DNA of 56,371 nt from Promethearchaeota archaeon (GCA_019058365.1 JAHPZE010000029.1:1-56371); one strand, 5' to 3'. Shown: positions 1 to 56,371, numbered from the stretch's first letter. Notes: generated from the letters alone by a model not told the origin. Program-made: numbers and translations.

Positions 1-120
1 TGAAACAAATTCTGATCAGATCATTTCGCCATCACTGAATTTTGTATCTGATCTTGATTTTTTGTTTAAATACATTCGCTATTATTTTGTCAGTAACCTC
101 TAATAATATATTTAGACTCG

Positions 121-3141: not shown

Positions 3142-3744
3142 ATGACCTCATACTTGGATTCTTATGACAATAAAATATCCCATCGGATCACAATTCATTT
3201 AATCAGCCAAATTTTGGATATTTTGGGTAAGTATAGTGATAATTATGAAAAAAAGTTAAATTTTACTAGATTAATGCAACAACTCAAAATCCCAACTTCT
3301 GAGATTGACGAATTTATTTCTTTAATATTACATTTTCAAGAAAAATTCGAACATGTCTTTAAGGAGTATCGAATAAAGAAAAAAAGACAAAATAACCAAG
3401 TTTATCTAACCGTAGAAAAAAAAGTGAAAGAGAAAACACCAATCATAATTAAAATTTTGACTTCACATTTAAATCTTTTTAATGATATAATCTATACATT
3501 CAAATTTGTAAAGAGAGGTAAGGGATTTGATACTTCTAAGAACGATTCAGAATTATTGACCAATCTAAAAGAGTTAAAAATTAAACATCCTTATCTCTTT
3601 GATCTGTACGAAAATGGAGTTATTTACCCATCAGAATTAGGGCTCAAGTTTGGAGAACTCATCATTTCATATAACAAAAGTAATAAAAAAATAAAAAATA
3701 TTCAAATCGAAAATTATACGTTTATTGTGGAGGAAGATGGGTGA
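3142..3744 (+). CDS. Hypothetical protein, possibly winged-helix; translationally coupled to Hef
   Basis: 200-aa ORF; stop overlaps the Hef start; 'GVIYPSELG' resembles a wHTH wing (weak). Confidence 0.6.
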   Translation: MTSYLDSYDNKISHRITIHLISQILDILGKYSDNYEKKLNFTRLMQQLKIPTSEIDEFISLILHFQEKFEHVFKEYRIKKKRQNNQVYLTVEKKVKEKTPIIIKILTSHLNLFNDIIYTFKFVKRGKGFDTSKNDSELLTNLKELKIKHPYLFDLYENGVIYPSELGLKFGELIISYNKSNKKIKNIQIENYTFIVEEDG

Positions 3745-5890
3745 AATAAAAGAAGTAACAAATGAGACATCAAATCTTAATTCTAATGAACTCCAAATAA
3801 GAGAGTATCAAATTAATATCGCGAATAAATGTGTGAATAAGAATTCATTAGTAGTATTACCAACTGGACTTGGAAAAACTATAATTGCGGTGTTGGTGGC
3901 AAGTAAAATATTGAATTTTTCTCCTCCTCAAAGTAAAATAATAGTGCTCGCACCTACACGGCCATTGATTAATCAACATTATGAGACATTTTTACGATTC
4001 TTAAAAATACCAAAGGAAAAATTGGTTATTTTAACAGGAAAAATACTTCCTGAGAAAAGAATTGATCTTTTTAATAATAATGAGATTTTGTTCTATACTC
4101 CCCAAACATTGCGAAATGATTTAGTTCTTAAAAAATATATATTGGATAATACAGCATTGATAGTATTTGATGAGGCTCATCATGCTTCGGGAGATTATGC
4201 ATATTCGATGATTGCTGATGAGTTTATAGATCATAACCCAGATGGAGTCATTCTCGGTTTGACAGCTTCACCTGGTTCTTCAAAAAATAAAATAAATACA
4301 TTATGTACAAATTTACATATTCCAATCGAAAATATTCATATCCGAACGCGTAAAGATGATGATGTAAAAACTTACCTTAAACCCATGGATATTTACAAAA
4401 TTGGTGTTAATTTAACAAGTTTAATGGAAGATGTATATCATTTACTAACTGTAGTATTAGATGAGCGACTACATTACCTTTCTCAAATAAATTTTTTAGA
4501 AGCAAACGGAAAAAAATTACATACTAAGGTGATCCGAAAGGATTTACTTAAGTTAAATGCAGAGTTAGTAATTACTTTAAAAAATAATGGAGATAAAACA
4601 GGAGTGTATAGTGCTTTATCAATCAATGCTCAAGCTTTAATTCTATTTCATATGCTAGAACTCGTTGAACAACAAGGATTAAACGTGTTGTTGGACTATT
4701 TTAATAAGTTGAATAGGGATGCGAAAAAGAAAAGTTGCTCAAAAGCAACAAAGATTTTAGCTTCAGAGGGTCGTTTACAAAGAATTTACTTAGAGTTAAA
4801 AAAAAATGTAGCATTCTCTCCTGAGAATTTAATCCATCCAAAATATCATATCTTAGTCAAAATTATTCAAGACGAATTGTACAATAATCCTACTTCTAAG
4901 ATCTTAGTCTTCGTAAAATTAAGAAATTCTATAAGAAATATTGTGCATAACCTAAAAGATATAAAATCAATAAAACCAGTAAGATTCGTAGGACAATCAA
5001 CTAAGTCTCAAGACGATAAAGGATTATCGCAAAAACGGCAGATAGAAATTCTTAATGAATTCAAACAAGGAATATATAATACATTAGTAAGTACTAATGT
5101 CGCAGAAGAAGGATTAGATATCGCTGAATGTGATTTGGTTATTTTCTACGATGTGGTAGCTTCAGAAATTAGACTTATACAACGTAAAGGAAGAACAGCT
5201 AGACATCGAGAAGGAAGAGTCGTCATTTTATACACTAAAGGAACTCGTGATGACGTATATCTAAGAATTGCATTGAGTAAATTGAACCGAATGAATATTA
5301 ACCTAAAAAACCCTCAACAGCTAAAAGATTCTTATAGATTTGAATCACCTCAAAACATTACCATTGAAAAAGAAGTTCTACCGAAAGAAGACTATAGAAC
5401 TCATAAAGAATCCATATCACAAGAATTTTTTCCTAAGAAAATAAGTAAAAGAAACTATCAATCAAAGCTCCAGTCTTTTATTGCGGGTGAACAATTAATT
5501 AAATCTAACAGTCCAGTAAAATTGAGTAAATCCCTCCCCATGAAGTACGGTTTACGAAAAAAACTGCAAAATGAAAAAATATTATATGATATTGAGGAAT
5601 CTGACCTTGATATCGTGCTTTTTAATAAGATTCTTATCCAGATATATGATCCAAAAGAATATGATTTAAAATCTCTAATTTCTGACATAGAAGATTTCAG
5701 GCAGATAACTTCACTTTTAATTATTGTATTTGATTTTATTGAGTTTAAAGAAGATATGGAAGGTGAAAAGAGAATATTAAAAAGAAAAATCCAAGAGGTC
5801 TCTAAGCAACATAATTTTCAAGCAATTACCATTGATAATGAAGAAGAACTATATTTTATCATAAAAAATGTTTTAGAAAATCCTAAATAA
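3737..5890 (+). CDS. hef: Hef/FANCM (Mph1)-family SF2 helicase with degenerate C-terminal ERCC4-like domain
   Basis: REYQ Q-motif, LPTGLGKT, DEAHH, GLTASPG, EEGLDI, IQRKGRTAR; ATG at 3737 preceded by GGAGGA. Confidence 0.9.
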   Translation: MGEIKEVTNETSNLNSNELQIREYQINIANKCVNKNSLVVLPTGLGKTIIAVLVASKILNFSPPQSKIIVLAPTRPLINQHYETFLRFLKIPKEKLVILTGKILPEKRIDLFNNNEILFYTPQTLRNDLVLKKYILDNTALIVFDEAHHASGDYAYSMIADEFIDHNPDGVILGLTASPGSSKNKINTLCTNLHIPIENIHIRTRKDDDVKTYLKPMDIYKIGVNLTSLMEDVYHLLTVVLDERLHYLSQINFLEANGKKLHTKVIRKDLLKLNAELVITLKNNGDKTGVYSALSINAQALILFHMLELVEQQGLNVLLDYFNKLNRDAKKKSCSKATKILASEGRLQRIYLELKKNVAFSPENLIHPKYHILVKIIQDELYNNPTSKILVFVKLRNSIRNIVHNLKDIKSIKPVRFVGQSTKSQDDKGLSQKRQIEILNEFKQGIYNTLVSTNVAEEGLDIAECDLVIFYDVVASEIRLIQRKGRTARHREGRVVILYTKGTRDDVYLRIALSKLNRMNINLKNPQQLKDSYRFESPQNITIEKEVLPKEDYRTHKESISQEFFPKKISKRNYQSKLQSFIAGEQLIKSNSPVKLSKSLPMKYGLRKKLQNEKILYDIEESDLDIVLFNKILIQIYDPKEYDLKSLISDIEDFRQITSLLIIVFDFIEFKEDMEGEKRILKRKIQEVSKQHNFQAITIDNEEELYFIIKNVLENPK

Positions 5891-6485: not shown

Positions 6486-6710
6486 TTATTTAAATTGGTT
6501 TATTACATCTGCAAACTCATTTTTTAGGATTGTTTGATAGATAGGATGCCTTTCTCGAAAAGGAATCCTTTCAAAACCTAGATATATATAACGTTTTGAT
6601 TTTCCAAATTCAGAGAAGGGGATAATTAATTTTTTCAGACTGACGGGTTCACTAATAATCTCTGCTTCAATAGGATCTTCAGATTTTTTTTCTAATGTCT
6701 TAGAACTCAT
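6486..6710 (-). CDS. Small hypothetical protein (ERHPxYQ family, copy 1)
   Basis: Paralog of 6819..7046 (MSSxTxEKK, IIPFSxFG, FxERHPxYQ, NEF); GTGA upstream of ATG. Confidence 0.75.
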   Translation of the reverse strand: MSSKTLEKKSEDPIEAEIISEPVSLKKLIIPFSEFGKSKRYIYLGFERIPFRERHPIYQTILKNEFADVINQFK

Positions 6711-7520: not shown

Positions 7521-7796
7521 TCAATCTTTATCGTTATTTTTGAGTTTCTTCAAATAAAGTTTCATGAAATAACGTTCACTTTCACAAAATTCGAGTTTTT
7601 GCTTCTTAGAAAGATTCACACAATTTAATAATATTGCATGTATTTTTTGTAGAGTGGTTAAATTCTCATCACATATATTTTCGATGTTTGCTTCCACCAC
7701 TTTTTCAGATTGGGTTTCTTTATTTACAGAATCTTTTAGTATTGATTCTGATCCTTGGATTTTAATATTATTTTTCTTTATAGTTTTAGAATTCAT
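7521..7796 (-). CDS. Small hypothetical protein
   Basis: 91-aa ORF; N-terminus MNSKTIKK resembles those of the two small paralogs. Confidence 0.55.
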   Translation of the reverse strand: MNSKTIKKNNIKIQGSESILKDSVNKETQSEKVVEANIENICDENLTTLQKIHAILLNCVNLSKKQKLEFCESERYFMKLYLKKLKNNDKD

Positions 7797-7877: not shown

Positions 7878-10403
7878 TTAAGATTTTATGATTTTCTTGC
7901 ATAGATTTATTCCTAAACCTGTTTTCTTATTAAGAGCATAAGAACTTTCTCTCTTTACTTGCGAAGCAGTATGATAACCGGCATTATATAAAATCCTCGC
8001 TCTTACTCTTGCCACATCATTTAATCTTAAAACTAAATCAAATAATTCTTCTTGAATCCCGTAATGTAATCGAATTCTAAGTGTTTCTGACATCTCGGCT
8101 ATCCGTATGAGTTTATCTTGTAGATCTAACCCATGTGTGCTTAAATTACTGGCGATAATCCCGATAAATGTAATTACTCTTTCTAGGTTATCCCTTACTG
8201 AAAAGAGATCTCCAGTCATAATTTTATATTTCTCTAAAATTTGCTCAAGAGGTTCTTCGTCTGCCCATTCTAAGATTGGTTGGAGCATTTTATTGTCTTT
8301 TACACGGATTTCAGCCTTTAGCACATCATAGGCTTCCTTAATTAATTCTTGAATACTATTCATTGCGATATTTTCTAGCTTGTATCTAATTATTACACCA
8401 GAAACAGGATTTAAATACAGTCGAATTATTAATTTGCCAAATTGAGAGCATTTTATTGTGCCATCATCATTTTTAATGATTAAACCCTTTTCAAATAAGT
8501 AGTTTAAGATATACTGATTTTTTATTGACTTTGGGATAATGGAATCCACATATTTTTGGAAATTAACATCAGGATACTGTATCAAATATGTTAAAAAAGT
8601 GGTGATATGATCGCAGAATTCAAACGAAAATTCACTATTGGCAAAATTGTCAGAGATTCCATTTTCAAATCCACATGAGCATTGAATTCCGGAAGTGATA
8701 TCAAATTGACAGAAGTATACTCCAAATTGGGTCTTTACATAACCTGAAATATTCTCATTATTAAATTTCGAAAGTTTGATTTGAAATGTTGCATTCTTTA
8801 GAGTTTTTACTTTATTCGCATCGGAATGAAGTTTTAAAATATTTATAGGAGTAATCTCTTTAATCATCAACAACTGTTCAATTGGTATTTTTTGTTCTTT
8901 CATTTTTTGCTTAATTCCATACCAAAAGTAGGTTCTCTCAAAAAAGCTCTTTAATTGTTCTAATGTGATTTTTTTTTCCTCATATATTCGTAGAAGTACT
9001 TGTTCTTTGAGAGTATTAATTTTATTCAATCCAGAGGTCAAATCATTATATCGTGGAATCAAAGAATTTTGTATAGGTTGACTTTGAAAGAAATGCTCTT
9101 CAACCCACATCTTTTCATCGACATTTTTGGTTAAAATAATTCCATATCCGACCGAATCAAGTCCAGGACGACCTGCACGACCCAAAATTTGGTGACACTC
9201 ATTTGCAGAAAATGGTTTGAAATAGGAAAACCCATCACCATTTTCATGAAATTCGGAAAAGTTTTTGATATTATGCCCAGATGTAACATATTTTTTGAAG
9301 TCTTTAAGAATAACCAAGCGCGCGGGAACGTTGATTCCCGCGGATAGCGTCGTGGTTGAACAGATTACTTTAATTATCCGTTTTCTAAAATTGTCTTCAA
9401 TAATTTTTCTCTCTTTAGGAAGGAGTCCTGCATGATGAAAAGCTACTCCGGATTTAATCACTTGTTGTAAATCTTTATGACCTCCCCTAATTGAACTTAA
9501 ACGTTTTTCTAAAGCTCTACAAAGATTAAGTTCATTTTCCTCTAGAAACTTTTTCACTAGATTTTTTATGTTTTCTGCTGATTGTTGAGCACTTTTTCGT
9601 TTATTTAAAAAAATAAGGACTTGTCCATTTTTTTCCAACGTGGCTTTTACAATTCTTTTTATAGTGGAATCTTTATTCTGTGTAATTTCAATTTTATAAT
9701 GTAACTGTACGGGGCGTTTATTGGATTTTATTAAGGTTGTCTTATTTCCCAAAGATGTGAGCCACGAGTTAAACAATTCTGGATTTGCAATTGTAGCCGA
9801 AAGACCTATTATTTGAGGATTATTTAAGAATTCATTTAACCGAACAATAAGAGATTCCAATCGCGGACCACGATCATTTTCACCAATGATGTGAATCTCA
9901 TCAATGATGATGGTAGAAATATTGAAAATCCATTCTTTATCATAAAAATTTCTTAAAATGGAATCCATTTTTTCATAGGTAGTTACAATGATATCTGCTT
10001 TTTCTAACTTTGAATCGTCTACATCATAGTCTCCTATTGAAAGCTCTACTTTCACTCCAAAACGTTCATAACTTTTCTTGAAATGAATATATTTCTCAGT
10101 AGCAAGAGCCTTATAAGGTACTAAATATATTGATTTTCCAAATTTTTGAAATATGTTATTTAGAGCACAAACTTCTCCAATTAAGGTTTTTCCACTCCCT
10201 GAGGGTGCACATATTAAAAAGGATTTTCTAAAAAATAATCCCTTCTTAATGGCTTCCTTTTGAATTTCTCGTAATTGAAATATTTTTCCTTCAAAAAGAA
10301 CTCTTAAAATTCGTTTGTCTGTAATAAACTTAAAAATTTCACGGTCGGAATTAGTATTTACCTCCTCACTTTCAGGACTTTCAGTAAAGTCTGTTAATGA
10401 TAC
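7878..10403 (-). CDS. hel308: Hel308/Hjm (Ski2-like) SF2 DNA helicase with SWIM-like Zn-finger insertion
   Basis: DEIH, GLSAT, FHHAGL, TLSAGIN, QILGRAGRPG, C-terminal HhH. The frame continues upstream of the track start (10055) to 10409 and encodes LREIQKEAI and Walker A APSGSGKT. Proposed start is GTA at 10403, 6 nt after AGGTGA. Confidence 0.88.
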   Translation of the reverse strand, partial: VSLTDFTESPESEEVNTNSDREIFKFITDKRILRVLFEGKIFQLREIQKEAIKKGLFFRKSFLICAPSGSGKTLIGEVCALNNIFQKFGKSIYLVPYKALATEKYIHFKKSYERFGVKVELSIGDYDVDDSKLEKADIIVTTYEKMDSILRNFYDKEWIFNISTIIIDEIHIIGENDRGPRLESLIVRLNEFLNNPQIIGLSATIANPELFNSWLTSLGNKTTLIKSNKRPVQLHYKIEITQNKDSTIKRIVKATLEKNGQVLIFLNKRKSAQQSAENIKNLVKKFLEENELNLCRALEKRLSSIRGGHKDLQQVIKSGVAFHHAGLLPKERKIIEDNFRKRIIKVICSTTTLSAGINVPARLVILKDFKKYVTSGHNIKNFSEFHENGDGFSYFKPFSANECHQILGRAGRPGLDSVGYGIILTKNVDEKMWVEEHFFQSQPIQNSLIPRYNDLTSGLNKINTLKEQVLLRIYEEKKITLEQLKSFFERTYFWYGIKQKMKEQKIPIEQLLMIKEITPINILKLHSDANKVKTLKNATFQIKLSKFNNENISGYVKTQFGVYFCQFDITSGIQCSCGFENGISDNFANSEFSFEFCDHITTFLTYLIQYPDVNFQKYVDSIIPKSIKNQYILNYLFEKGLIIKNDDGTIKCSQFGKLIIRLYLNPVSGVIIRYKLENIAMNSIQELIKEAYDVLKAEIRVKDNKMLQPILEWADEEPLEQILEKYKIMTGDLFSVRDNLERVITFIGIIASNLSTHGLDLQDKLIRIAEMSETLRIRLHYGIQEELFDLVLRLNDVARVRARILYNAGYHTASQVKRESSYALNKKTGLGINLCKKIIKS

Positions 10404-10421
10404 CTTAAATCACCTTAATAG

Positions 10422-10727
10422 TTAATATGGATTTGTCCACTTTTTCATAATTTGTGTAAAGGTTTCAGAATCTCTTGAAATCTCAATGCTTCTTATAATA
10501 CCTACATTTCGTATCTCCAATTCTGAATTAATATAACAGAGTAAAGCATGAAGAGGATTCCCATGTAAATGGATATGGGGTAAATGAATATTTATATTTT
10601 TGCTTTTTAGAATAACATCTTCTACACCAATAGAAATCTTCTCATTACATTGAGGACAAGTGATTGAGATTTTTGATGTGTGCTTCACATCTTTAACATT
10701 TTTAATTTTGCCAAATACAACTACGAT
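10422..10727 (-). CDS. Small Zn-binding protein (CPQC...HxHxHGxPxH)
   Basis: Track ORF starts at GTG 10688; frame is open to 10733 with ATC 6 nt after GTGA. Ends just before the hel308 SD. Confidence 0.7.
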   Translation of the reverse strand: MVVVFGKIKNVKDVKHTSKISITCPQCNEKISIGVEDVILKSKNINIHLPHIHLHGNPLHALLCYINSELEIRNVGIIRSIEISRDSETFTQIMKKWTNPY

Positions 10728-10889: not shown

Positions 10890-11010
10890 GACTTGCACCC
10901 ATTCTGCCGATGCAAATAAGCATCTAAATAAATTAGGAGGAGGGCGAAATCAGAGTGTAAAAATTACACTACCAAAAGACAAAAATCCAGGGCGCAGAAG
11001 GGTGTAAGTC
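10890..11010. ncRNA. Unidentified multi-stem structured element in a divergent intergenic region
   Basis: GACTTGCACCC-A-TTCTGC (10890-10907) pairs with GCAGAA-GGGTGTAAGTC (10994-11010); internal hairpins GATGC/GCATC and AGTGTAA/TTACACT; GC-rich relative to flanks. Confidence 0.55.
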
Positions 11011-11159
11011 ATAATTTTAATGATTTTTATAATTCTTGTCATTTAGTAAGATCTACCACTAAAATATAAAGTTGTTCTTTATAAATAAAAAATAATAAAA
11101 GCCCTAATTTTCTGATTTTTTTCTTTATAAGTAAATGAATTATTTTTTTTTTGATACGT

Positions 11160-13214
11160 ATGACGGATACAGAACAGAATTTATTGCAGAAAAAACCAGA
11201 TTTGAAATTATACTATGAAATGGCTCATGAGGCTGCTCAAGCAAACAATGTTGATGAAGCTCGTAAGATTTCCCTAAATGGTTTAAAAATAGCCCAGTCT
11301 CAGAAGAGACCAGATTGGGTTGATAAATTCGATTCATTTAATTCCCAGTTACCTCAAAAAGTATCAAATACCTCTTTAACCCCAAGTATAGTAAAAGAAG
11401 ATCTGACTGTTGTGAAAGGTATTGGGCCTTCCGTTGCAGAAAGATTAACTAATGCGGGAATAATTTCTATAAATATGCTTGCAAGGTCAAATGCTACAAA
11501 ATTAGCTTTAATTCCAGGGATAGGATTATCCACAGCTCAAAAAATGATCGATAGAGCGTTGGACCATTTACATACAAAAACTTTGGATGGTTTTTCTCAC
11601 TTAAATGAGATATCTAATAGTGAAAATCAAATTAATATTAAAGGCGAAAAAAATAATGAAATTGTTAGTAGTGAGAATTATAAAGAGCAAAAACGAAATA
11701 AAACCTTCGAAGAAGTGTCTGCAGAGGATCTTGCCTCAGAACCTGCAAAGTTAAATGTCAAGACTAATGGAGAACCTTGGTTTGAAGATAAGTTTAATTA
11801 TTCACGATTAACAGATGATCTTAATACGACAAAAATAGAGATTATGAAAAATGAGGATTTAAATGAATATGACGAACCCCGGATAGTTGAACAGAATGAG
11901 ATAAAATCAGAGGATTATGATGAGATAGACGAAGAATATGAAGAAGATAGCAATTATAGTCCACATGTTATAACTCCGAGTGAGTTTATTAGTGAAATTG
12001 CTCCTAATGAGTCAGCGAATAATGAAGAACAAAAGGAAACTCTTACTTACCAAGAGATGAATAGGTTAAGAGAAAAAATAAGAAAACACTTAAAATCATG
12101 TGAATTCTTAACTGTTGATAGAAATTCAGATTTTCGCGCTATTTTTACGGGAATTGATTTATTAGCATTAAAGAGAATTCGCGTAAATGAATTCCTTGAT
12201 TTATTATATATATTACCTATCAAAGCGAGCAATCTTAAAGGTAAATTTATTGTTTCAGCAGGTAAAATTGATTACACCCCAAACAAAGAAAGTGAAGTGA
12301 ATTTTAATCTCAGTAAAATACTATGGTCATATGTGAAAGCTTTGCAGAAAGCGGAAACAACAATTTTTAATGATATGTCGTCTAAGGGGGTGTTATTTCA
12401 ATATATAGTAAAACACTTTCAATTTGATATTTCTGTTGAAAAAACAATTACTCATAAGTCATTATTCTTTCGATCAGGACCAATTCAATATAAATTATTA
12501 ATTGAACCACTAATAATTAGTCTTAGTAGTGTTGGATTTACTGAAAGGCTTATTCCGTTTGCGTATCAAAAACCCCATAATATTCATATAGTAGAAATAG
12601 CTCAATTTAGAGATGTTTTACATTTTCTTGATCAGAAATATTTCCTCATTGAAACATATCAGGAAAAAAAAAGTGCTCTCTCAATAAATTGTGAAGCTGA
12701 AGAGAGATTCATGAAAGGTGTACGGAAATATTCAAGTCCTTTTATATTATATGGATTTACGTTATTGATAATATTTCTATTTCAAGGATTTTCATTATTA
12801 ACTATATTAATTAATATAGGATATGGAGTTGTAGGACTCTATATTATAGTAATTGGTTATATATACCTAAGGTTTTTTACAGAAAAAAGAAAGATTAAGC
12901 AAGAGTTTGTAACTCCTTATTATCAGAAGAAAGTTAAATTAGATGATATAGGGTTAACGCTCATAAGAGAAGAGTTAACTCCAAAACTTATGGAACAGTT
13001 TGTGTATGAAGTAATGGGAAATAACAATAACTCCCGTTTAATAGCAGAAATAGAACAAACAAACGCTCGGGATTTTCTTGAATCTAAAAAAATAAAAAAT
13101 CTCGTTGATAAAACAGATTTTTTTGAAGAAGAAGGGAAAGGGCCGAGTAGGAGTGAAAATTCTAAAGTAACAAGCACATTAATAGAAAAATATAGCTCAT
13201 TTTTGGAGGATTGA
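11160..13214 (+). CDS. Membrane protein with tandem helix-hairpin-helix DNA-binding domain, acidic linker, restriction-endonuclease-like fold and 2 TM helices
   Basis: DLTVVKGIGPSVAERL...LIPGIGLSTAQKM (HhH pair); GIDLLALK...LPIK resembles a PD-(D/E)XK core; two hydrophobic helices near the C-terminus. Confidence 0.7.
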   Translation: MTDTEQNLLQKKPDLKLYYEMAHEAAQANNVDEARKISLNGLKIAQSQKRPDWVDKFDSFNSQLPQKVSNTSLTPSIVKEDLTVVKGIGPSVAERLTNAGIISINMLARSNATKLALIPGIGLSTAQKMIDRALDHLHTKTLDGFSHLNEISNSENQINIKGEKNNEIVSSENYKEQKRNKTFEEVSAEDLASEPAKLNVKTNGEPWFEDKFNYSRLTDDLNTTKIEIMKNEDLNEYDEPRIVEQNEIKSEDYDEIDEEYEEDSNYSPHVITPSEFISEIAPNESANNEEQKETLTYQEMNRLREKIRKHLKSCEFLTVDRNSDFRAIFTGIDLLALKRIRVNEFLDLLYILPIKASNLKGKFIVSAGKIDYTPNKESEVNFNLSKILWSYVKALQKAETTIFNDMSSKGVLFQYIVKHFQFDISVEKTITHKSLFFRSGPIQYKLLIEPLIISLSSVGFTERLIPFAYQKPHNIHIVEIAQFRDVLHFLDQKYFLIETYQEKKSALSINCEAEERFMKGVRKYSSPFILYGFTLLIIFLFQGFSLLTILINIGYGVVGLYIIVIGYIYLRFFTEKRKIKQEFVTPYYQKKVKLDDIGLTLIREELTPKLMEQFVYEVMGNNNNSRLIAEIEQTNARDFLESKKIKNLVDKTDFFEEEGKGPSRSENSKVTSTLIEKYSSFLED

Positions 13215-13948
13215 TGTCAATACGGATTATTAGCGGCTTTAAGCTCAGCTTTCTAATTGGCTTAATACTGTTATTTTTATCACCATTTATGGAATGGTAT
13301 TCTTATCAAATTTTTACATTAGAAAATGAACTTGTTGTATCATGGAAGTATAATATATTTTTTGAATGGTCAACCTCGTTATTTCCTAGTACCCCTTTCA
13401 ATGAGGCATTACGCCCCAAGAATTTAGTTATACCGCTAGTTATTAATGTTCTTTTATTTGTTTCCATTATTCTTTCTGGATATGTAGTTTTGTTTAAAAA
13501 TGTTGAGAAGGTAGAATCTTTAGATAAATTCACTCCTTATTCATATATTCTTGGACTTTTACTCGTATTGAATCTATTTTATATTGTCATCTTTCCTGTA
13601 ATGTATTTACTACCTCAAGGATTATATTTTCCTTTTTTACAAATTGTCGATTTTGATTCAACATTTATTTACATTCTAACGTGTAGTCAGGGTTACATAA
13701 TACAATCTATTGCATTTCCGTTAATTTTTCCGTATATTATATTTTATTTTAAAACAATTAGCACATTTCAGCAGAAGGAGAAAATACCTGAAACAATCAT
13801 AACGAAAATAATAGAAAAAGCTCAAGAACCGATAGATCTTGATAAATTAATAGCTCAAGAAGAGTTAAAGCAAAAATTTAAGAAAAAAAAGCCTCAAGAA
13901 GATAATCTCGAGAATTTTATAACTACTTTTATAGAGGGAAATGTATAA
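13214..13948 (+). CDS. Four-TM membrane protein with charged C-terminal tail
   Basis: Four hydrophobic segments; ATG overlaps the upstream TGA (TGATG). Confidence 0.75.
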   Translation: MSIRIISGFKLSFLIGLILLFLSPFMEWYSYQIFTLENELVVSWKYNIFFEWSTSLFPSTPFNEALRPKNLVIPLVINVLLFVSIILSGYVVLFKNVEKVESLDKFTPYSYILGLLLVLNLFYIVIFPVMYLLPQGLYFPFLQIVDFDSTFIYILTCSQGYIIQSIAFPLIFPYIIFYFKTISTFQQKEKIPETIITKIIEKAQEPIDLDKLIAQEELKQKFKKKKPQEDNLENFITTFIEGNV

Positions 13949-14818
13949 ATGAGCGACACTGTTCTCGATTTAAAGATTAAGTCCTTGATCCAAGTGTGTA
14001 AAGAAACGAGAAATAATAAGAAACTATCGGTTGTAAGCTTTATTTTGACTAGCAACAAATTAGATGAGATAGGAATCAAGCTTGGAATAAGAAAACGTAA
14101 TAAAAAATCGGGAGAAAAAATTTTCGAATATATGACTCTGATAAATGACATTTTTGACCAAAACTTAAAGATTCGGATTATTGCTAAAGAATTAATTGAG
14201 GTTGTAAAGAAGTGTGAATTATTATTTTTACGTAATAAAGGAGTAATTCCTTATGATTGTATTAAATCAATGTATCACGTTTATTATGAAATGAGAAAAT
14301 TAGAAGTTCCAAATCTTCATAATAGTCTAATTAAAGATGTATTTCTAGAGTCTTCACAATTAGGCTTCTTTTCTTACTTATCCCCACATATAAAGCGAAA
14401 ACAAAATGAGCAAAATATATTAAAACCTCTCATAATTCAAAAGATAAAAGAAAAAGAATTATTCATTAAAAGAGAGTTAGAGCATAGTTTTAATAGCCAA
14501 CTGTTTGAAGACGCAATCCAGCTGCATTCAGTAAAAAATTCATTAACTAAGAGGAGGAAAAATAAAATCATAGTTCAGGGATCATTAAAACAAGATCTCT
14601 CATACCAAAAATCTATTGAAGATATTTTTAAATATTTAGTATTAGGGTTAATTATTCTGCTCTTTTTATTGGGTTCAATCATATTGATTGAGGTTATGTA
14701 TCTTCCCACAGAAATAAGTGGTCTTAGTTCATGGTCTTTCTTTTTTTTAGGACCCGCAGCTATTTTAATTCTAATATATATACGGTTTTTTAAAAGGGAG
14801 GGTGTATTAAATGGTTAA
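13949..14818 (+). CDS. Hypothetical protein, soluble helical N-terminus plus 2 C-terminal TM helices
   Basis: ATG directly abuts the upstream TAA; hydrophobic hairpin at the C-terminus. Confidence 0.75.
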   Translation: MSDTVLDLKIKSLIQVCKETRNNKKLSVVSFILTSNKLDEIGIKLGIRKRNKKSGEKIFEYMTLINDIFDQNLKIRIIAKELIEVVKKCELLFLRNKGVIPYDCIKSMYHVYYEMRKLEVPNLHNSLIKDVFLESSQLGFFSYLSPHIKRKQNEQNILKPLIIQKIKEKELFIKRELEHSFNSQLFEDAIQLHSVKNSLTKRRKNKIIVQGSLKQDLSYQKSIEDIFKYLVLGLIILLFLLGSIILIEVMYLPTEISGLSSWSFFFLGPAAILILIYIRFFKREGVLNG

Positions 14819-17800
14819 AAGCTATACTCATGAAGATCACCAAAATTTCTCTCGAAAAAAAAGTATAAAGAAAAATGAGATAGAAGATGATTTTAGAGAA
14901 GATAGTAAATCATACTTAGATATCTGGAACGTAAATCCCTCATTTAAAGATATAAATAATAATATATCTATTAGAAAAACAGTTTTTTTAATTATTTTAC
15001 TCTTCTTTGTCATTATTTCATCCTATATTCTATTAAAGAATCTCACTGCTTCTATTTGGAGTGGATTGATTTTAAGTATTGTTTTTATTATAGGATTTCA
15101 TGATGAGTTCTTCATGTTTGAAAACCTTTTTTCTACAATATTTCATAGTAAAATTTCAATTGATCCCTTTAAACATTTAATATTTTGGTATGATTCAGAT
15201 GATCCTACAACTTTATTTATCTCGAATCGAAAAGACCTAACCCATATCGCAATTCGAATTTATAAAGTGGATACGATTCCTGAAAATGTTCATTCTTCAA
15301 TTAATCAATTTGTAAAAGCTCTCAGCTCTAAAAATGTAAGACTTCCGTTTTCATATCAAGTCGTACAGAAACCTATTATAAATCTGTTTAAAAAGGATGC
15401 TACACGAAATTTAACTACTCAATCCATGGCCTCTGTTATCGCTTCTATTTATTTTTCTGTATTTTATGATATTAAAGGAATTCTTACTGACAATAAAATA
15501 GACAAACTTAAATATCATGTTAAAAAATTTTCTAATACTTTAAAAAGTAATTTTATTGGAAATTTTCATCATTTTCAAGCAACATTATTATCAGATACAG
15601 CTCTCATTAATGCGATAAGAACTTTTTTTGTAAAGGAAACTTCAAAAACAACCACAGGGGTAAATAAAAGAAAAATTTTAAACGGGGTTAGATTCAATAT
15701 CTTAGTAAAAGCAGGAGTTTGTATAACATTATTACTATATTTTGAGTATATCTTCTTTTCTCTTCTTTTTCCAATGCTATATATCATCAGTATTAATCTT
15801 ATCTTAATAACAAGTATTATTTTAATTTGGTGGAGAAATGTATTCTTTGGATTCACGAAAAATAAATTGATTGGCACACCTACTATTGATATTGTAAATC
15901 CGTTCAATAATATTGAGTTCTTTAAAGTAAGAAGATATCCTTCGAGTTTATTTATTCATATTGAGAACCAATTATTAATCGGTGTTAAAATGGTTCATCT
16001 TAAATATCTTTTCAGGAAACCTTTTTGCTTAATTGGAAAGTTTCTCGAGGCTCTCAATAACCATAACATTTCCTTTAGTTATACTCTTAAAAATAAACCA
16101 ATAAATTACTATGAGTTCTATAAACATGGATTAAAACAAGTTCATGAAAAAATACAAACCCAATTGTTATGGGACAAAGTGAATGGTGTAAAAAACGAAG
16201 CAGATGCAGAACGATGGTTAGGTTACCGGTATGGTATGTGGTATAGCATATTAACTCTTTCGGTTAACTCATATAAATTCATGAGTTCAATTGTAGAAGA
16301 CGATTTTGATGAGTTAGAAGAGGAACTGACAATAAAATTAGATACGTTAAGAATTGCCTTTAATTCTAATTTTCAAAACTATGAGATTGAAGATTTGAGT
16401 TCACGATTTTTATTATCTGGATATTTATTCTCTACACTTAAAAATAACAATTTTAGATTAAACGGATCTCATCTAAACTATATTATGCTACAAGGTACAA
16501 CACTTTCACCACTTACTGCAGTAGTTGATATCCTTAAAAAAGGAACAACAACAAAAATTGCAGCTGAATTTAACACTCCATTGTACTTAGAGAATTTTAT
16601 AACAATTGGTCATACAATTAATACAGAAGTGTTAGAAAATGAAGTACCTTTTGGGTTTACATCTGACCAGTTCAAAAACTTACTTATTGTAAATGGCACT
16701 TCTTTGAATAGAGAATTAGCCTCTATGAAAATTGTAATAGAACTAATAAAAGCAGGAGTCCCTTCGTTAGTATTTGATTTTAATGGCACATGGTCGAAGC
16801 TCATTCATTATTTTGATGACACTCATTTCAAAAAGGAGCTTTTATACTTTAAATTAGGAAGTGCTTTTATAATCGACCCACTCATATCTGATATTCCCTA
16901 TGACCCTGAAAACACTGAATATTTAGAATATATGTTTGATGCCTTTGGATTAGCGTTTAGAAAAGATCAGAGGATAATTGAGATGTTTCGCAACACAATA
17001 AGAAAAAAGGCTGATATGGATCTTCCCTCAATTCAATTAGATTTACAAACGGCTAAAGATTGGGAAAAAAATCCAATTAATGACTCACTTTTAACGCTAT
17101 TTTCTGACTTTACACAACAAGATCTTACTTATTTTCAAAGTAACCAGGGAGATAGTAAAAATCAGATACGGGTTTATGATTTTGTAAAAAGTAGTAAAAC
17201 AGTTATCATAGATCTTTCGACTCTAAGAGATCTTGATAAGCAATTGTTTTTTGTATTTCTTATCATCTCGAAAATAATACATTATATCAAACATTCAAGT
17301 GAATATTTTGAAAAAACTATTTTCGTTCCAAATATAGATATATTTTTCAATTCTAGTTTCTTAGATTGGCAAATGCATTATGGCAAGATTAATACCTTCT
17401 TAGATCCTCTTATATACCATGGATTTGGATTGGTATTTTCAGCAAACCAAATTCGATATCTGCATTCCCATATTTTTAATTATTTTCATAATATTATTTC
17501 ATTTAAAGCAACAGATAAACGTGACATCTCCACATTAAAATCCCAGATGAATTTACAAGAATTATATGGTACAGGATATTATACTTCGACAAGAAATAAT
17601 ACATATCAAATCGACTATTTGATGAACATGATAAATAACGAAGTATTAATTCGAAGAGATGATATATATCAACCATTTCCGGCATCCATTGAATGGAACA
17701 AGATAAAAGATAAAACGACAATTCCATATGAAGAGATCCTACATTTTATGAAAACTCAAGGCTATGATTTACAATATGCAGAAAGAAAAATACTAGAAAG

Positions 17801-18638
17801 GGCAAAGAAAACGTTTTTTGAAAAAGATTTGGGGAATTATGCGATATATATTAATGAGATTATTAAATTTTTAGATGAATTAAAGGTGATTGACCAAATC
17901 GGCAATCTATACGCTCAAAAATTAAAAAGTCATCTGAAGGAAATATTATACCCTAAAATATCAAAAAGAACAAATAACAAACAGCAGATGAAAGTAATCA
18001 GAGATAATATTTTTAATATTTTAATAAAACATGGCTACTTAGTTGAAAACCATCCCAGAAGAGCAAGTGGTTCTGAAGCTTTAAGGACATCGTATTCAGT
18101 AGGAGAACAGTATCAAATTGCGTTAGATGATTATTTTAAAACGAAAGGAAATGCAAATACTGATATGAATGTCGAAATTTTAGAAAAAGAAATTGCGAAT
18201 TATGATGAGCTACCAAATATTTTTCCCTCCAAACCACGAAAATATATAATTCAAAAAGAACAGTTAAAGGATGCCTTAATGCGTGAATTTTCCGATTTTA
18301 ATTATGATTTATTTAAGATATATAGTTTTATCGATGAAAAAGAGTTTCAAACCGCCATAAAAATCCAAAATGGATTAATTAAAGAGTTCTTATTACGAGT
18401 GTACCAGCAATATCACAATATAGAGGAGGAGGTCTCAACTGAGGAATTAGAGCAATTTCTCGCCATGCTTGGAGATATCCAAGATTTTCCATTCTCAACC
18501 CAAGAACTAATGGAAATTGCTGAAAAGTATAAAGCTATTGATTTAGAAAAAGAAAATATCGAAATTTTAGTACAAGAAATATATCAGTTTATTTATGATT
18601 TTTTTATAAAAATTCAACATTTTATTTATGGAGAGTGA
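14811..18638 (+). CDS. Membrane-anchored HerA/VirB4/FtsK-superfamily ATPase-like protein with degenerate Walker motifs
   Basis: IGHTI...VPFG...NLLIVNGT (P-loop position), SLVFDFNGTW, VIIDLS, GFGLVFSANQ...NIISFK match the HerA/VirB4 layout; duplicated N-terminal 2TM+alpha/beta module. Confidence 0.7.
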   Translation: MVKSYTHEDHQNFSRKKSIKKNEIEDDFREDSKSYLDIWNVNPSFKDINNNISIRKTVFLIILLFFVIISSYILLKNLTASIWSGLILSIVFIIGFHDEFFMFENLFSTIFHSKISIDPFKHLIFWYDSDDPTTLFISNRKDLTHIAIRIYKVDTIPENVHSSINQFVKALSSKNVRLPFSYQVVQKPIINLFKKDATRNLTTQSMASVIASIYFSVFYDIKGILTDNKIDKLKYHVKKFSNTLKSNFIGNFHHFQATLLSDTALINAIRTFFVKETSKTTTGVNKRKILNGVRFNILVKAGVCITLLLYFEYIFFSLLFPMLYIISINLILITSIILIWWRNVFFGFTKNKLIGTPTIDIVNPFNNIEFFKVRRYPSSLFIHIENQLLIGVKMVHLKYLFRKPFCLIGKFLEALNNHNISFSYTLKNKPINYYEFYKHGLKQVHEKIQTQLLWDKVNGVKNEADAERWLGYRYGMWYSILTLSVNSYKFMSSIVEDDFDELEEELTIKLDTLRIAFNSNFQNYEIEDLSSRFLLSGYLFSTLKNNNFRLNGSHLNYIMLQGTTLSPLTAVVDILKKGTTTKIAAEFNTPLYLENFITIGHTINTEVLENEVPFGFTSDQFKNLLIVNGTSLNRELASMKIVIELIKAGVPSLVFDFNGTWSKLIHYFDDTHFKKELLYFKLGSAFIIDPLISDIPYDPENTEYLEYMFDAFGLAFRKDQRIIEMFRNTIRKKADMDLPSIQLDLQTAKDWEKNPINDSLLTLFSDFTQQDLTYFQSNQGDSKNQIRVYDFVKSSKTVIIDLSTLRDLDKQLFFVFLIISKIIHYIKHSSEYFEKTIFVPNIDIFFNSSFLDWQMHYGKINTFLDPLIYHGFGLVFSANQIRYLHSHIFNYFHNIISFKATDKRDISTLKSQMNLQELYGTGYYTSTRNNTYQIDYLMNMINNEVLIRRDDIYQPFPASIEWNKIKDKTTIPYEEILHFMKTQGYDLQYAERKILERAKKTFFEKDLGNYAIYINEIIKFLDELKVIDQIGNLYAQKLKSHLKEILYPKISKRTNNKQQMKVIRDNIFNILIKHGYLVENHPRRASGSEALRTSYSVGEQYQIALDDYFKTKGNANTDMNVEILEKEIANYDELPNIFPSKPRKYIIQKEQLKDALMREFSDFNYDLFKIYSFIDEKEFQTAIKIQNGLIKEFLLRVYQQYHNIEEEVSTEELEQFLAMLGDIQDFPFSTQELMEIAEKYKAIDLEKENIEILVQEIYQFIYDFFIKIQHFIYGE

Positions 18639-18996
18639 CCAACGATTGGAGAAAACTAATAATCTTAATGAAATGCTTGAAAAAATGTTATTTAATGAGA
18701 AGGACTTAAATATTTTAAAAATTGCTATAGACAATATGAATATGGGAAAGATATCACCTAAAGAATTAAGAAAATATATTATCGAATCTCGTGTAAAGAT
18801 AATTGAAAAACTACTCAAATTTTTTCCATTTTATCTTAAGCAAGTAACTATTGAAAAACCTTTAGAAGCACTTGCCCAGCCTCACACTAATATAAAATTG
18901 AACCAGGAATTACAAGAGAAAAATGAATTTCTTAAAGATGTAGGATCACGAGTAAATAAAATCCATAAAGAATTAAAGTATAAACTTGAGATCTGA
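18628..18996 (+). CDS. Small helical hypothetical protein, last gene of the operon
   Basis: Overlaps the upstream stop by 11 nt; 122 aa. Confidence 0.65.
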   Translation: MESDQRLEKTNNLNEMLEKMLFNEKDLNILKIAIDNMNMGKISPKELRKYIIESRVKIIEKLLKFFPFYLKQVTIEKPLEALAQPHTNIKLNQELQEKNEFLKDVGSRVNKIHKELKYKLEI

Positions 18997-19133: not shown

Positions 19134-21062
19134 ATGTTATCCGAAAAAATTCTTACATCTGCAAGTACAACCATATCGTTAAATGAGTTGTTTCCCAATT
19201 GTACAAGTCAGTTTATTAAGCCTTTTAAACAAATAATTGATCTTGACATTCATAAAGGAATCAGTCTTGATTTTGAGCTATGTGACAGAGTTCAAAAGAA
19301 AAAATTAAATCCTATTCTCAGATTAGCAAAACCAGAGGATGCCGAAGAACTTGTTGGAATTTATAAGGAGTTGTATAATGGTACCTATCCTTATAAAGAG
19401 ATGGAAGATCTGAGTGAAGTTCGAAAGATGATACAAGATTCTTCAATCCAGTGGATTATCTATCAAGATCCTTCTTTTAACATAGCGGGATGCATCACAT
19501 TTGTTTTGGATTTTGACAATAAACGGGGATACATTCGCGGATTTATGCTTAAAAAGAAATATCAAGGATATATAGATATTACGAAAGCTATGATTGGCTC
19601 TATGCTTGGGATGATCCATAAGTATAAAAATGAGATCTATATATGGTATGTGGAGAACAGAACTGCTCACACTAAATCTCAGTACTCAATGTGGGTTTGT
19701 GGAATTGCCCCAATTGGATTTTATCCAAATAAAGATATATTTTTAGGGAAAGTAGAATCTGACTTAATGCAGATTCTATATGATGAGAGAGCCTTAACAA
19801 TATGTAGAATTAAAACTGTGCCCCAACTTTTACCTCAAGTCGAAAATTGCTATTTATATGCTGATAAACGATATAATTTAGGAAAGTATCGAATCAAGGA
19901 ACCACAAATTTCTTTAAATCAGAAAAAGATTTATCACTTGAGAAAAAGTCTTAAAAGGAATATTGAAAAAAATGATTTTGGATATGAAAAGATACGATTT
20001 TCGTTTTCTGATACAGATTCATATTTTGAATTTCTCTACACCCCCCAAGTAAAAAATTTTGAAAAAACTGTGTACCATGTAAATAACCTTGAGGAGCTAT
20101 ATATCTTTTTGAAAGAATTTATTAAATGTGGAAAAGAGCTTGAAATACGATATTGTGAAGCATTTATTTCAGCTTATAATCTTGCTCATCAAAAATTATT
20201 TTCTAATGTAGGACTATCTCCGAGAGGGTATGTCCCAAGTTGGAAATATAATAGTAAAAAGGACGTTTTTGAAGACTATATCTTATTTAATTGGTTTAAA
20301 GGGAATGTTAATGAAAGTATTCAATTAATTGATGAGGGAAAACAGCTATTGGAGATTTTAGAACTGAATAATCCACTACTTATGAGAGATTTTTTTGAAG
20401 AGAGAAGATTTTTAGGGAAATTGCCAACTTTTTATAGCTTTAAAGAAAAACTTTCAAATGTCTGGAATTATCCGAAAACTATTAAATCCTCTTTAATGGT
20501 TGGATTGATAGTATATCTATCAATGGTTATTATGAGTATTATTATCGCAAATTCTTTTGGATATCATATAATTTCCCATACGATAAGTCAACTAGGATCA
20601 ATTCATAACACTCCTGCACCCTTTATGTTTGATATTGCGTGCATTATCGGTGGTCTAACGACGATATTGTTATACTGTTATCTCTCAAGGAGGATTATAA
20701 TGGAGGAAAATACCTTATCAATTAAATTTTCTCGATATGGGGTAATTATTGGCACAACTGGGAGTATTGGGATAATGTTTGTGGGTATATTCAGTCTTGA
20801 TAGATCAGGACCTTTTGGATTATTCCATATTTTATCTACGACATTTGCTTTTGGGGGGTTTATATTAGCATTATTCACTTATGGGATAATGTTATCTAAA
20901 ACGAAATCGAAACTACAAAATATTATCGGAATTAATGGGATTGTGCCTTTAATAGCCCTAATCGGAAATTTTATATTTCCTACTCCATTAATGGAATGGA
21001 TATTACTTTTTACAATCCTTACTTCTTTAATCCCGCTGTTTTGCTTAGTTTCGTTTAAATAA
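19134..21062 (+). CDS. GNAT-like N-terminal domain(s) fused to a DUF998/Frag1-like multi-TM domain
   Basis: LRLAKPEDAEEL...YPY...GFMLKKKYQG (GNAT-like); C-terminal ISQLG...F...GIF...H TM pattern. Confidence 0.65.
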   Translation: MLSEKILTSASTTISLNELFPNCTSQFIKPFKQIIDLDIHKGISLDFELCDRVQKKKLNPILRLAKPEDAEELVGIYKELYNGTYPYKEMEDLSEVRKMIQDSSIQWIIYQDPSFNIAGCITFVLDFDNKRGYIRGFMLKKKYQGYIDITKAMIGSMLGMIHKYKNEIYIWYVENRTAHTKSQYSMWVCGIAPIGFYPNKDIFLGKVESDLMQILYDERALTICRIKTVPQLLPQVENCYLYADKRYNLGKYRIKEPQISLNQKKIYHLRKSLKRNIEKNDFGYEKIRFSFSDTDSYFEFLYTPQVKNFEKTVYHVNNLEELYIFLKEFIKCGKELEIRYCEAFISAYNLAHQKLFSNVGLSPRGYVPSWKYNSKKDVFEDYILFNWFKGNVNESIQLIDEGKQLLEILELNNPLLMRDFFEERRFLGKLPTFYSFKEKLSNVWNYPKTIKSSLMVGLIVYLSMVIMSIIIANSFGYHIISHTISQLGSIHNTPAPFMFDIACIIGGLTTILLYCYLSRRIIMEENTLSIKFSRYGVIIGTTGSIGIMFVGIFSLDRSGPFGLFHILSTTFAFGGFILALFTYGIMLSKTKSKLQNIIGINGIVPLIALIGNFIFPTPLMEWILLFTILTSLIPLFCLVSFK

Positions 21063-22007: not shown

Positions 22008-23153
22008 TTATATATTTCTTTTTCTAATTAACTTTACAATGGATTCTATTTGAGTCTTTTTTGGATCTAGTTCAATTTGGGTTTGAATTAGTTCAATAAG
22101 TTCATGTTGTGAAATGCCAATATTTTCTAAAAAATCATTTACTTCTTCTTCTTTGAATTTATTTTCAAGGATAAGTGGAGTTACAATTCTAAGAGTTCTT
22201 AACCACTTTTTCCTTAATTGAGGATTTTGACGTACTAGTTCTGCATATTGAAATGCGTAAAGAATTCCTCCATATCTATTAATATCATAAAATGTAGCAG
22301 CATGAACTACATTACAATTAGTTAAAAGTGGATCAGCATGTCCTTTTTTGATATAATTTTTTGATTCCACAAGATCAATAATCTTTTGTTCTTGGTATGG
22401 TATCACATGATAGGGCAAAAGAACTCTTGGTATGTTTTTACTGTTTATTTCTTCATCATTCAAATAGCATAATGCATCAGAAATATCAAAGAGAGGATCA
22501 TTGAGTAATAATTTAGGCTTCCAATAATGAACTACGTCTTCTTGAGGTATTTCATAGAAATATCGAAAAATCTGATCAGGAGAATATCCAAAAAGTACAT
22601 AAGGAATATCACGCTTTATAGCTTCTTTTACCACAATGCTATGAATTAAATCTGAACAATAATCACAGATATCCCGAGCTAAAAGTGTCTCATTTGAGTT
22701 ATGGTTAAAAAAATGGTATTTATATAACTTGGTAAACGTAGGTATACAATCCTCGATTATTACATGATCCACATGAATTTGCTTTAAAGTATGCTTCATA
22801 TTATCTTTTGCAATATCTGTCATAAATCCTGTAACAGAAGTTACCGCTAATGGAGTTAGTCGTAATTTATTTACTAAAAAATCTAATAGAGCTGTCGAAT
22901 CTTTTCCTCCTGAATATCCTAAAATACAATCATATGGGACGTTTCCATGATTTTTTTGCATTTCTTCTACTACTTGATTCCAATTTGTAAGAGCACTTTT
23001 CCTTCTTTCACTGCTAATTTCATTTCGAGACCAATTGATATTTCTATGGTCGGGATCACTACAAAAATCGCATGTACCCTCTAAATCTAACTGAACGCCT
23101 AAAAATCCATCAGGTAGAATACATTTTCGACAAATATTTAGTTGTTCTATCAT
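22008..23153 (-). CDS. PP-loop ATP pyrophosphatase, N-acetyl-sugar amidotransferase (WbuX)-like
   Basis: N-terminal CRKC...CDFC; YDCILGYSGGKDS; CDYC. Confidence 0.8.
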   Translation of the reverse strand: MIEQLNICRKCILPDGFLGVQLDLEGTCDFCSDPDHRNINWSRNEISSERRKSALTNWNQVVEEMQKNHGNVPYDCILGYSGGKDSTALLDFLVNKLRLTPLAVTSVTGFMTDIAKDNMKHTLKQIHVDHVIIEDCIPTFTKLYKYHFFNHNSNETLLARDICDYCSDLIHSIVVKEAIKRDIPYVLFGYSPDQIFRYFYEIPQEDVVHYWKPKLLLNDPLFDISDALCYLNDEEINSKNIPRVLLPYHVIPYQEQKIIDLVESKNYIKKGHADPLLTNCNVVHAATFYDINRYGGILYAFQYAELVRQNPQLRKKWLRTLRIVTPLILENKFKEEEVNDFLENIGISQHELIELIQTQIELDPKKTQIESIVKLIRKRNI

Positions 23154-56279: not shown

Positions 56280-56371
56280 TACATATGAATTCTTTAGATA
56301 TATTTAAAGAAAAAACAAAGATTAGCTACAAAATTCAGTGATTTGAAGACCACTTGGTATTAAATTGTATC

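Follow-up and report, generated by a model that had tools for sequence, protein, structure and literature searches.

The Ced system of the Sulfolobales and the Ted system of the Thermoproteales are type IV systems that have become domesticated and are linked with DNA repair; their CedB and TedB proteins are described as ATPases powering translocation (PMC9905601). We analyzed a five-gene operon (g1 to g5) at positions 11160-18996 of a 56,371-nt stretch of DNA from a Promethearchaeota archaeon (GCA_019058365.1 JAHPZE010000029.1:1-56371; this whole stretch is hereafter the window), which shares with Ced and Ted an archaeal chromosomal setting, a VirB4/HerA-like protein accompanied by small membrane proteins, and a link to DNA repair and recombination. 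An earlier note on this DNA had proposed an Asgard system for DNA uptake or exchange, or for tethering the chromosome to the membrane. On balance we lean towards a membrane-anchored, cytoplasm-facing scaffold that brings a Hel308 paralog and recombination proteins to DNA, in other words a membrane-tethered platform for recombination and repair. To our knowledge almost nothing is known of DNA repair, exchange and recombination in Asgard archaea, a subject relevant to how recombination and sex arose in eukaryotes, and we found no published description of the operon or of the g4 family in the literature.

The five overlapping or abutting genes described in the earlier note were recovered with their coordinates and all four junctions. 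All five open reading frames (ORFs) lie on the plus strand of the AT-rich window (~30% GC); g1 and g2 overlap by 1 nt (TGATG), g2 and g3 abut (TAAATG), g3/g4 and g4/g5 overlap by 8 and 11 nt, and GGAGG-like motifs stand 5' of g2, g3 and g4. Transmembrane (TM) segments were found by hydropathy in four of the five proteins (g1, g2, g3 and g4) and not in g5, which agrees with the four TM-encoding genes of the earlier note. Ratios of nonsynonymous to synonymous substitution (dN/dS) against the same-genus genome L012 were 0.36, 0.27, 0.32, 0.20 and 0.24 for g1 to g5, respectively, and we therefore regard all five as real genes under purifying selection. Every large soluble domain of the operon proteins is predicted to be cytoplasmic by the positive-inside rule, and their outer loops are short, except one loop in g2.

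The g4 gene (14811..18638, +) encodes a 1275-aa VirB4/HerA-like pseudo-ATPase, as judged from its modeled fold and its sequence motifs. It has 318 homologs at ~30-90% identity, corresponding to 177 representatives among 1.8 billion proteins at 50% identity clustering, and those with a named source all come from Asgard metagenome-assembled genomes, where they are annotated as 'hypothetical'. Searches against Pfam, NCBIfam and PDB sequences gave zero matches, with nothing at E ≤ 0.1 for the VirB4, TraC and DUF87 models of Pfam and NCBIfam and the same outcome when nine distant relatives were compared with Pfam; the fold is visible by structure only. An AlphaFold2 model of aa 380-1275 (58 sequences; mean predicted local distance difference test score, pLDDT, 85) was matched by Foldseek to TrwK/VirB4 (7o42_A, E 2.6e-10) and HerA (4d2i, E 3.5e-10). 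VIA matches, which span model residues ~202-609 (protein aa 581-988), were headed by the C-terminal domain of DndH (7es4, Z 24.8, 327 aligned residues, root-mean-square deviation (rmsd) 4.1), followed by VirB4 of T. pseudethanolicus (4ag6, Z 24.5), HerA (4d2i, Z 24.5) and TrwB (1e9s, Z 21.5). These comparisons confirm, at the level of the model, a P-loop translocase fold of VirB4/HerA type for the g4 core, and so bear out the HerA/VirB4-type core that had been assigned to this gene.

Within the RecA-type P-loop-like domain delimited by Foldseek and VIA (16551..17774, +; aa ~581-988), the Walker A position is occupied by the degenerate motif NGTSLNRE (16692-16715, +; aa 628-635) and the Walker B-like motif VIIDLS (17202-17219, +; aa 798-803) is missing its catalytic glutamate. 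The consensus at the P-loop position is NGxxxxRE in Lokiarchaeia and GGTxxER in distant g4 forms, and GK[ST] occurs there in none of the 58 aligned members and likewise in none of the distant forms. The full [AG]x4GK[ST] pattern was found in only 2 of 205 g4 relatives of at least 450 aa, both times off-position, and among the loci that we fetched a true Walker A was seen only in L009, a small-genome Asgard archaeon, where it is part of an ordinary HerA-like protein of 459 aa. Judged from these motifs, the g4 family is one of pseudo-ATPases without a working ATP site. Because the Walker A motif and the catalytic Walker B acid are gone in every relative, g4 cannot be a motor, unlike CedB. The most conserved g4 motifs are non-catalytic, namely AAEFNTP...INTE just before the core and a GYYSxxRNxTYQ loop that was modeled with low confidence. 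The family offers a clear instance of a translocase ATPase retained for hundreds of millions of years after the loss of its ATP site.

The N-terminal half of g4 (14943..16535, +) is made of tandem modules (aa 45-290 and 291-575), each a TM hairpin joined to an alpha/beta part, with hairpins at aa 57-96 and ~297-340 by hydropathy; the two modules align with each other over 227 columns (hhalign probability 99.4%, E 4.8e-21). Alignments with TrwK/VirB4 reach beyond the ATPase domain into the second module (model residues 1-607 against chain residues 232-805), covering 435-487 residues at Z 15-18, yet at rmsd 13-15. A VirB3-VirB4-like layout is consistent with this model, though not proved by it. 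The C-terminal region (17775..18635, +) is helical in the modeled secondary structure and holds a putative winged helix at aa ~1060-1105, for which a weak Pfam match in one distant homolog (E 0.0075) falls short of establishing the domain.

The first gene, g1 (11160..13214, +), encodes a 684-aa membrane-anchored protein that is predicted to bind DNA. It consists of a helical N-terminus, a double helix-hairpin-helix (HhH)2 domain (aa 80-133), an acidic linker (aa ~140-290; 27% D+E), an alpha/beta domain (aa ~290-500), a single TM hairpin (aa 533-565) and a helical tail. The HhH motifs that the earlier note had seen in this gene are those of Pfam HHH_5, which scores above its gathering cut-off (47 bits against 27, E 3.7e-12) and is present in 46 of 47 aligned g1 rows, the remaining row being the query, which was cut to begin past the HhH. 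The closest NCBIfam and PDB matches of this part are the N-terminal domains of RadA. Clusters of K and R lie on both flanks of the TM hairpin and therefore place both termini and the large parts of g1 in the cytoplasm. Between them, the g4 core and the g1 HHH_5 domain supply the translocase fold and the DNA-binding fold that structural comparison had been expected to reveal. In some close relatives of g1 (P0269 and P0282), an NYN RNase domain of the Zc3h12a-like kind is inserted where the acidic linker stands.

Divergently transcribed from the operon is a hel308 gene of a module-associated type (7878..10409, -), which matches the NCBIfam Hel308-type models at 260-346 bits and is the only good Hel308 match in the window's genome (297 bits). 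Of 31 g4-like loci, 17 have a Hel308-like gene inside the stretch that was fetched; these cover six other Asgard families (f9, f11, f14, f17, f21 and f28), and in two of them (f9 and f28) the Hel308-like gene overlaps the g4-like gene by 4 nt. The genomes of f9, f21 and f28 carry a canonical Hel308 elsewhere (596-639 bits) in addition to the divergent copy beside the g4-like gene (275-314 bits), and the window's genome and its relative G147 have only the ~280-300-bit kind. In a maximum-likelihood tree of 20 Hel308 sequences, two groups were separated with support of 97/98: one holds the canonical copies and one long-branched third paralog of genome G038, and the other unites the Loki helicases, that of the window included, with every module-adjacent copy. 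Both the bit scores (297 against 596-639) and this split speak against orthology of the window's hel308 with canonical archaeal Hel308. The tree therefore marks the helicase beside the operon as a dedicated module paralog that, as far as sequence comparison tells, travels with the g4 family across Asgard lineages. The earlier note had called the position of the operon beside hel308 and hef suggestive; with a dedicated paralog, the link to DNA repair is stronger than it had claimed. The paralog tree, and the absence of a canonical copy from the window's genome, are new here, and with the module-type Hel308 as the one kind held by Lokiarchaeia, 'Hel308' in such genomes has to be read differently.

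The start of this helicase gene is unusual. Ahead of helicase motif I, its 843-codon frame offers no ATG, GTG or TTG as a start, and it opens straight after a TGA that lies within a strong Shine-Dalgarno-like AGGTGA (window 10386-10415, -; the same in L012 and L001), and six nucleotides past that TGA stand GTA in the window and ATA in L012 and L001. Upstream in the same frame is an 88-codon ORF encoding a CxxC zinc-ribbon-like protein with no match in Pfam (10422..10688, -), with nothing but a TAA, three codons and a TGA between it and hel308, an arrangement that is identical in L012. These sequence features suggest that translation of hel308 starts at a non-canonical codon or is coupled to the upstream ORF.

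RadA and an XPD-type helicase are encoded within g4-like operons of other Asgard families. The window's genome has two RadA copies at canonical level (435 and 408 bits) and a divergent third (243 bits), whose orthologs in seven Loki relatives share a contig with g4 at a distance of 14-22 kb. In a RadA tree, which included one row from a bad fragment, the Loki paralog falls outside the canonical clade (83/97). The third RadA of the window's own genome (G000:C46:248770-249618) is only 283 aa long, compared with frames of 397-433 aa in its orthologs; it diverges after residue 262 and is followed by an overlapping 141-codon ORF, so a frameshift or a gene split in the assembly may account for its length.

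The other helicase of this neighborhood, of Hef type (3725..5890, +), matches NF010337 at 557 bits (E 7e-167) over profile positions 6-553 of 781 and carries the Pfam domains ResIII, DEAD, Helicase_C and PF21210; no ERCC4-type nuclease domain was detected in it. A 200-aa protein encoded upstream of hef was considered as a g5 paralog and rejected (hhalign probability 0.3%). Two small ORFs lie between the hef operon and hel308 (6489-6710, -, 74 codons; 7524-7796, -, 91 codons), each with its own T-run/TATA promoter, and Pfam does not recognize the 91-codon one.

Relatives of the window keep the gene order with small variations, which answers the synteny check across Lokiarchaeia that the earlier note had proposed. 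The five-gene order recurs in the closed Promethearchaeota chromosome L001 (g4 58% identical), where the divergent helicase and the downstream DUF998 gene are also present, in L002 (32% identity) and in six further loci of the same family; in L013 two genes are inserted between g1 and g2. A survey of 301 genomes of the phylum showed full-length g4, mostly as a single copy, in 54 of the 68 that belong to the window's family and, within its genus, in 19 of 21; the window's genome has one copy. Other Asgard families have shorter relatives, either ~785 aa with one module or split into ~270 aa and ~520 aa, and these are likewise ATP-dead. No integrase or island context was seen around the operon, and its neighbors are conserved.

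A candidate promoter of the form CTGA-T7-C-TTTATA (11112..11129, +) stands ~30 nt upstream of the g1 ATG, and nine orthologous loci retain the T-run/C/TTTAWATA form ahead of g1. The exact 14-mer occurs 7 times in the 4.74-Mb genome and, with one mismatch allowed, 162 times, of which 8 are inside the window against ~1 expected; the form is present in 7 of 504 TATA-bearing promoters (~1.4%). The same T-run/TATA form precedes the divergent third RadA and at least eight of its orthologs, which is suggestive, though only that, of co-regulation of the operon and the RadA paralog, and looser versions precede hel308, hef and the DUF998 gene. No TFB gene was recognized among the window ORFs with Pfam. 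Between hel308 and g1 lies a GC-rich stretch of ~120 nt (10890-11012) that is conserved in the same-genus L012; an Rfam search of this intergenic region returned only a sub-threshold C/D snoRNA-like match (sn3071, 18 bits, E 0.52).

The three remaining operon proteins are smaller. g2 (13214..13948, +; 244 aa from its ATG) has four TM segments, a charged tail at its C-terminus and an outer loop rich in aromatic residues; its orthologs take the same position in nine loci, with a distant copy in L004, and comparison with Pfam, PADLOC and PDB sequences (profile search) gave zero matches beyond noise. g3 (13949..14818, +; 289 aa) combines a cytoplasmic domain of ~225 aa with a C-terminal TM hairpin; its 125 homologs, none of them named, include syntenic copies in nine loci, and nothing usable came from Pfam, PADLOC, a PDB profile search or the ESM Atlas. 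g5 (18628..18996, +; 122 aa) is small, soluble and helical and has no match in Pfam or PADLOC, with orthologs immediately 3' of g4 in the window, L012, L001, L013, L018 and L002, and relocated beside the Hef gene in L015. Identification of g5 as a HEPN domain was ruled out, as its Rx4H string is not conserved. In L014 (7547-8410), the g5 ortholog is fused to a tail of ~170 aa with the Rx4H-type string RNDAVH, and this tail resembles a window protein encoded at 26148-27005.

In the platform that we infer, ring assembly, DNA binding, a physical partnership with the Hel308 paralog and the biological role would fit together as follows. g4 would presumably form a ring, each chain being anchored in the membrane through two TM hairpins, and serve as scaffold or portal, not as motor. 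g1 would tie duplex DNA to the platform through its RadA-type (HhH)2, and its nuclease-like domain may recognize DNA rather than cut it; g2, g3 and g5 would be membrane and adaptor subunits. Motor activity would be supplied by the divergent Hel308 paralog, which would have taken it over from the dead VirB4-like protein, and the Hef helicase and the RadA paralog of the same neighborhood would process the DNA, which could be the cell's own chromosome or come from outside.

Several observations weigh against this reading. The 'nuclease-fold' that the earlier note gave to gene 1 survives as a weak likeness of fold and fails as a catalytic site: in the AlphaFold2 model of g1 aa 286-684 (pLDDT 84; ~90 for the alpha/beta domain), the closest VIA match of the domain was McrC (6hz4_M, Z 7.0, 127 residues, rmsd 3.6), and Foldseek rows for FokI, MspJI, Shedu and BspD6I reached probabilities of at most 0.44. 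The wide VIA search with this model was dominated by the TM or helical hairpin and barely probed the alpha/beta domain, the McrC match coming from a second look, and the ESM Atlas gave no usable match for the domain. D333 and K355 are conserved, and with P353 at the position of the second acid, two residues before K355, the PD-(D/E)xK triad is incomplete and no catalytic D...(D/E)xK motif was found in the domain, which on the model is probably nuclease-like and non-catalytic. g2, g3 and g5 have no recognizable fold or family. In G147, a complete-looking relative, g4 lies apart from g1-g3, and the RadA tree does not place the Loki paralog with the module RadAs of other lineages. A stricter promoter pattern had 14 genome matches against 5-12 in Markov controls and so is not enriched across the genome; what speaks for a private promoter is its conservation ahead of g1 and of the RadA paralog, not genome-wide statistics.

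The surroundings of the operon include further recurrent features. Downstream lies a gene for a DUF998 membrane protein (19134..21062, +; Pfam DUF998, E 3e-9), which is a conserved neighbor, in an equivalent position in L001, L012, L013 and L014, and a possible member of the system. Further on, a divergent pair of genes for 381- and 385-aa proteins (22008-23153, -, and 23295-24452, +) has back-to-back T-run/TATA promoters and is conserved at the equivalent site of L001. A shared repeat of at least 55 nt terminates 8 of 108 contig ends of the genome, ending ...ATCACTGAATTTTGTA[GT]CT[AG]ATC: both ends of the window (1-53 and 56317-56371) and the contigs C9, C30, C31, C42, C46 and C53. A T-run/TTTAWATA promoter and an inward-reading gene follow 2-4 nt past the repeat, and a second, related repeat terminates seven other contigs. 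The contig-end repeat may be the end of a multi-copy mobile element or a long shared upstream promoter module. Its core is also found, again with a T-run promoter, ahead of the RadA paralog of L049 and ahead of the g4-like operon of the distant L003. Directly behind the repeat and its promoter, each window end encodes one large protein (121-3087, +, 988 aa; 50871-56279, -, 1802 aa) with a hydrophobic signal-like N-terminus and a prenyltransferase-type alpha/alpha toroid domain, and a 1442-aa protein of the same kind is encoded upstream of the operon in L002.

Against the platform reading stands, first, an apparatus for DNA import or cell-to-cell exchange, a functional analog of Ced/Ted or of bacterial competence, which we hold possible if doubtful. 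Here the dead ring and g2 would form a portal, incoming single-stranded DNA would be drawn through by the Hel308 paralog, in the manner of ComFA, and then recombined by the RadA paralog. Such a role draws on the resemblance of the architecture to a VirB3-VirB4 fusion and a type IV inner-membrane complex, on the linkage of Hel308, RadA and Hef to the operon, on the giant signal-peptide-bearing proteins that share the repeat and T-run promoter with the RadA paralog, and on the precedent of Ced and Ted as domesticated type IV systems linked to DNA repair (PMC9905601). It has to contend with an operon that lacks an active translocase ATPase, with profile searches in which neither a CedA/VirB6-like protein of 6-7 TM nor a VirB2-like pilin was recognized, and with a protein mass that is almost wholly cytoplasmic, the HhH domain of g1 lying on the cytoplasmic side, unlike that of ComEA. 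Of the two functions offered in the earlier note, the evidence accommodates a tethering of DNA work to the membrane no less well than Ced-like uptake or exchange of DNA, which is a hypothesis.

A more specific form of the idea, which we think unlikely, is a mating-like exchange of DNA among Asgard archaea derived from a type IV inner-membrane complex, with a passive VirB4 portal, a Hel308 motor, and RadA and surface proteins switched on together through the private promoter. Were it true, the closest relatives of eukaryotes would possess a built-in chromosomal system for DNA swapping and recombination. The operon might instead encode a membrane complex with no role in DNA, derived from a secretion ATPase and active in protein export or envelope assembly, its repair-gene neighborhood being accidental. 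Dead ATPases often turn structural, nothing about g2, g3 and g5 points to work on DNA, and the DUF998 membrane protein is a conserved neighbor; we nevertheless find this improbable, given that g1 carries an HhH domain of DNA-binding type, that the Hel308 paralog accompanies g4-like genes in six further Asgard families, in many cases with translational coupling, and has a clade to itself, and that RadA and XPD are encoded in the same operons elsewhere. HerA proteins of defense systems retain their ATP sites, and the least probable reading, a HerA-plus-effector defense or conflict system in which a membrane sensor scaffold directs nuclease effectors at invading nucleic acids, has the matches to DndH-C, SIR2-HerA, DUF4297-HerA and TdpAB, the nuclease-like domain of g1, the NYN RNase of g1 relatives and the Rx4H tail of one g5 ortholog to recommend it, but runs against the loss of the ATP site in every g4 member, the absence of PADLOC matches for any of the five proteins, and a distribution that takes in nearly the whole family (54 of 68), mostly as one copy and in synteny, rather than being patchy, with no integrase or island.

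The platform that we favor can be set beside four kinds of described machinery. With VirB4/TrwK (4ag5/4ag6, 7o42 and 8rtd), g4 shares a RecA-type C-terminal domain (Z 24.5) and attachment to the membrane, and with VirB3-VirB4 fusions an N-terminal TM hairpin placed before the soluble part; the part of ~200 aa ahead of the RecA-type domain may correspond as well, since the high-rmsd TrwK alignments continue into it. It differs in that its ATP motifs are gone, its TM-hairpin module is duplicated and a long extra C-terminal region is present, and in being a chromosomal core gene with no Pfam VirB4 or DUF87 signal rather than part of a mobile element; VirB3, VirB6, VirB8, a coupling protein and a relaxase were not found among the window ORFs with Pfam. 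The HerA and HerA-effector systems (SIR2-HerA, DUF4297-HerA, DndH and TdpAB) have in common with it the core fold (Z 19-25) and an association with nucleases and DNA repair, but g4 has lost the ATP site, is embedded in the membrane and gave no HAS-barrel alignment. A SIR2, DUF4297 or NurA partner was not found, the last being absent from both the operon and the window by Pfam, and PADLOC assigned the operon proteins to 0 families.

Bacterial competence relies on ComEA, an outward-facing HhH DNA binder, on the ComEC channel and on ComFA, a helicase-type motor. The parts list here is similar, with a membrane HhH binder, a nuclease-like membrane protein, an SF2 motor and a recombinase, but the g1 HhH is predicted to be cytoplasmic and no ComEC-like channel is present; this is a likeness without demonstrated homology.

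The comparison with Ced made in the earlier note holds in part. The VirB4/HerA-fold membrane-associated protein of Ced and Ted has its counterpart in g4 (Z 24.5 to both 4ag6 and 4d2i, with TM hairpins), and membrane proteins accompany it. The analogy gives way at the ATP site, where g4 has NGTSLNRE for GxxxxGK[ST] and VIIDLS for hhhhDE in place of intact Walker A and B motifs. For the channel and the pilin no counterpart was recognized: CedA/TedA is a VirB6-like protein of 6-7 TM, g2 has 4 TM and no PDB profile match, and profile searches with g2 and g3 recognized no CedA/VirB6-like channel; 11160-18996 holds no small 2-TM ORF for a VirB2-like protein (CedA1/TedC). The domains of the operon proteins, moreover, face the cytoplasm. 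In addition, the locus has a membrane protein with an HhH domain and a Hel308 paralog dedicated to the system, neither of which is among the Ced/Ted components in PMC9905601. Where Ced and Ted couple translocation to an ATPase of their own, this conserved and near-universal Lokiarchaeial gene set would couple a membrane complex derived from a conjugation machine to a dedicated Hel308 paralog. The putative dead ring, the tether with its HhH domain and the private helicase are concrete parts that lend themselves to testing.

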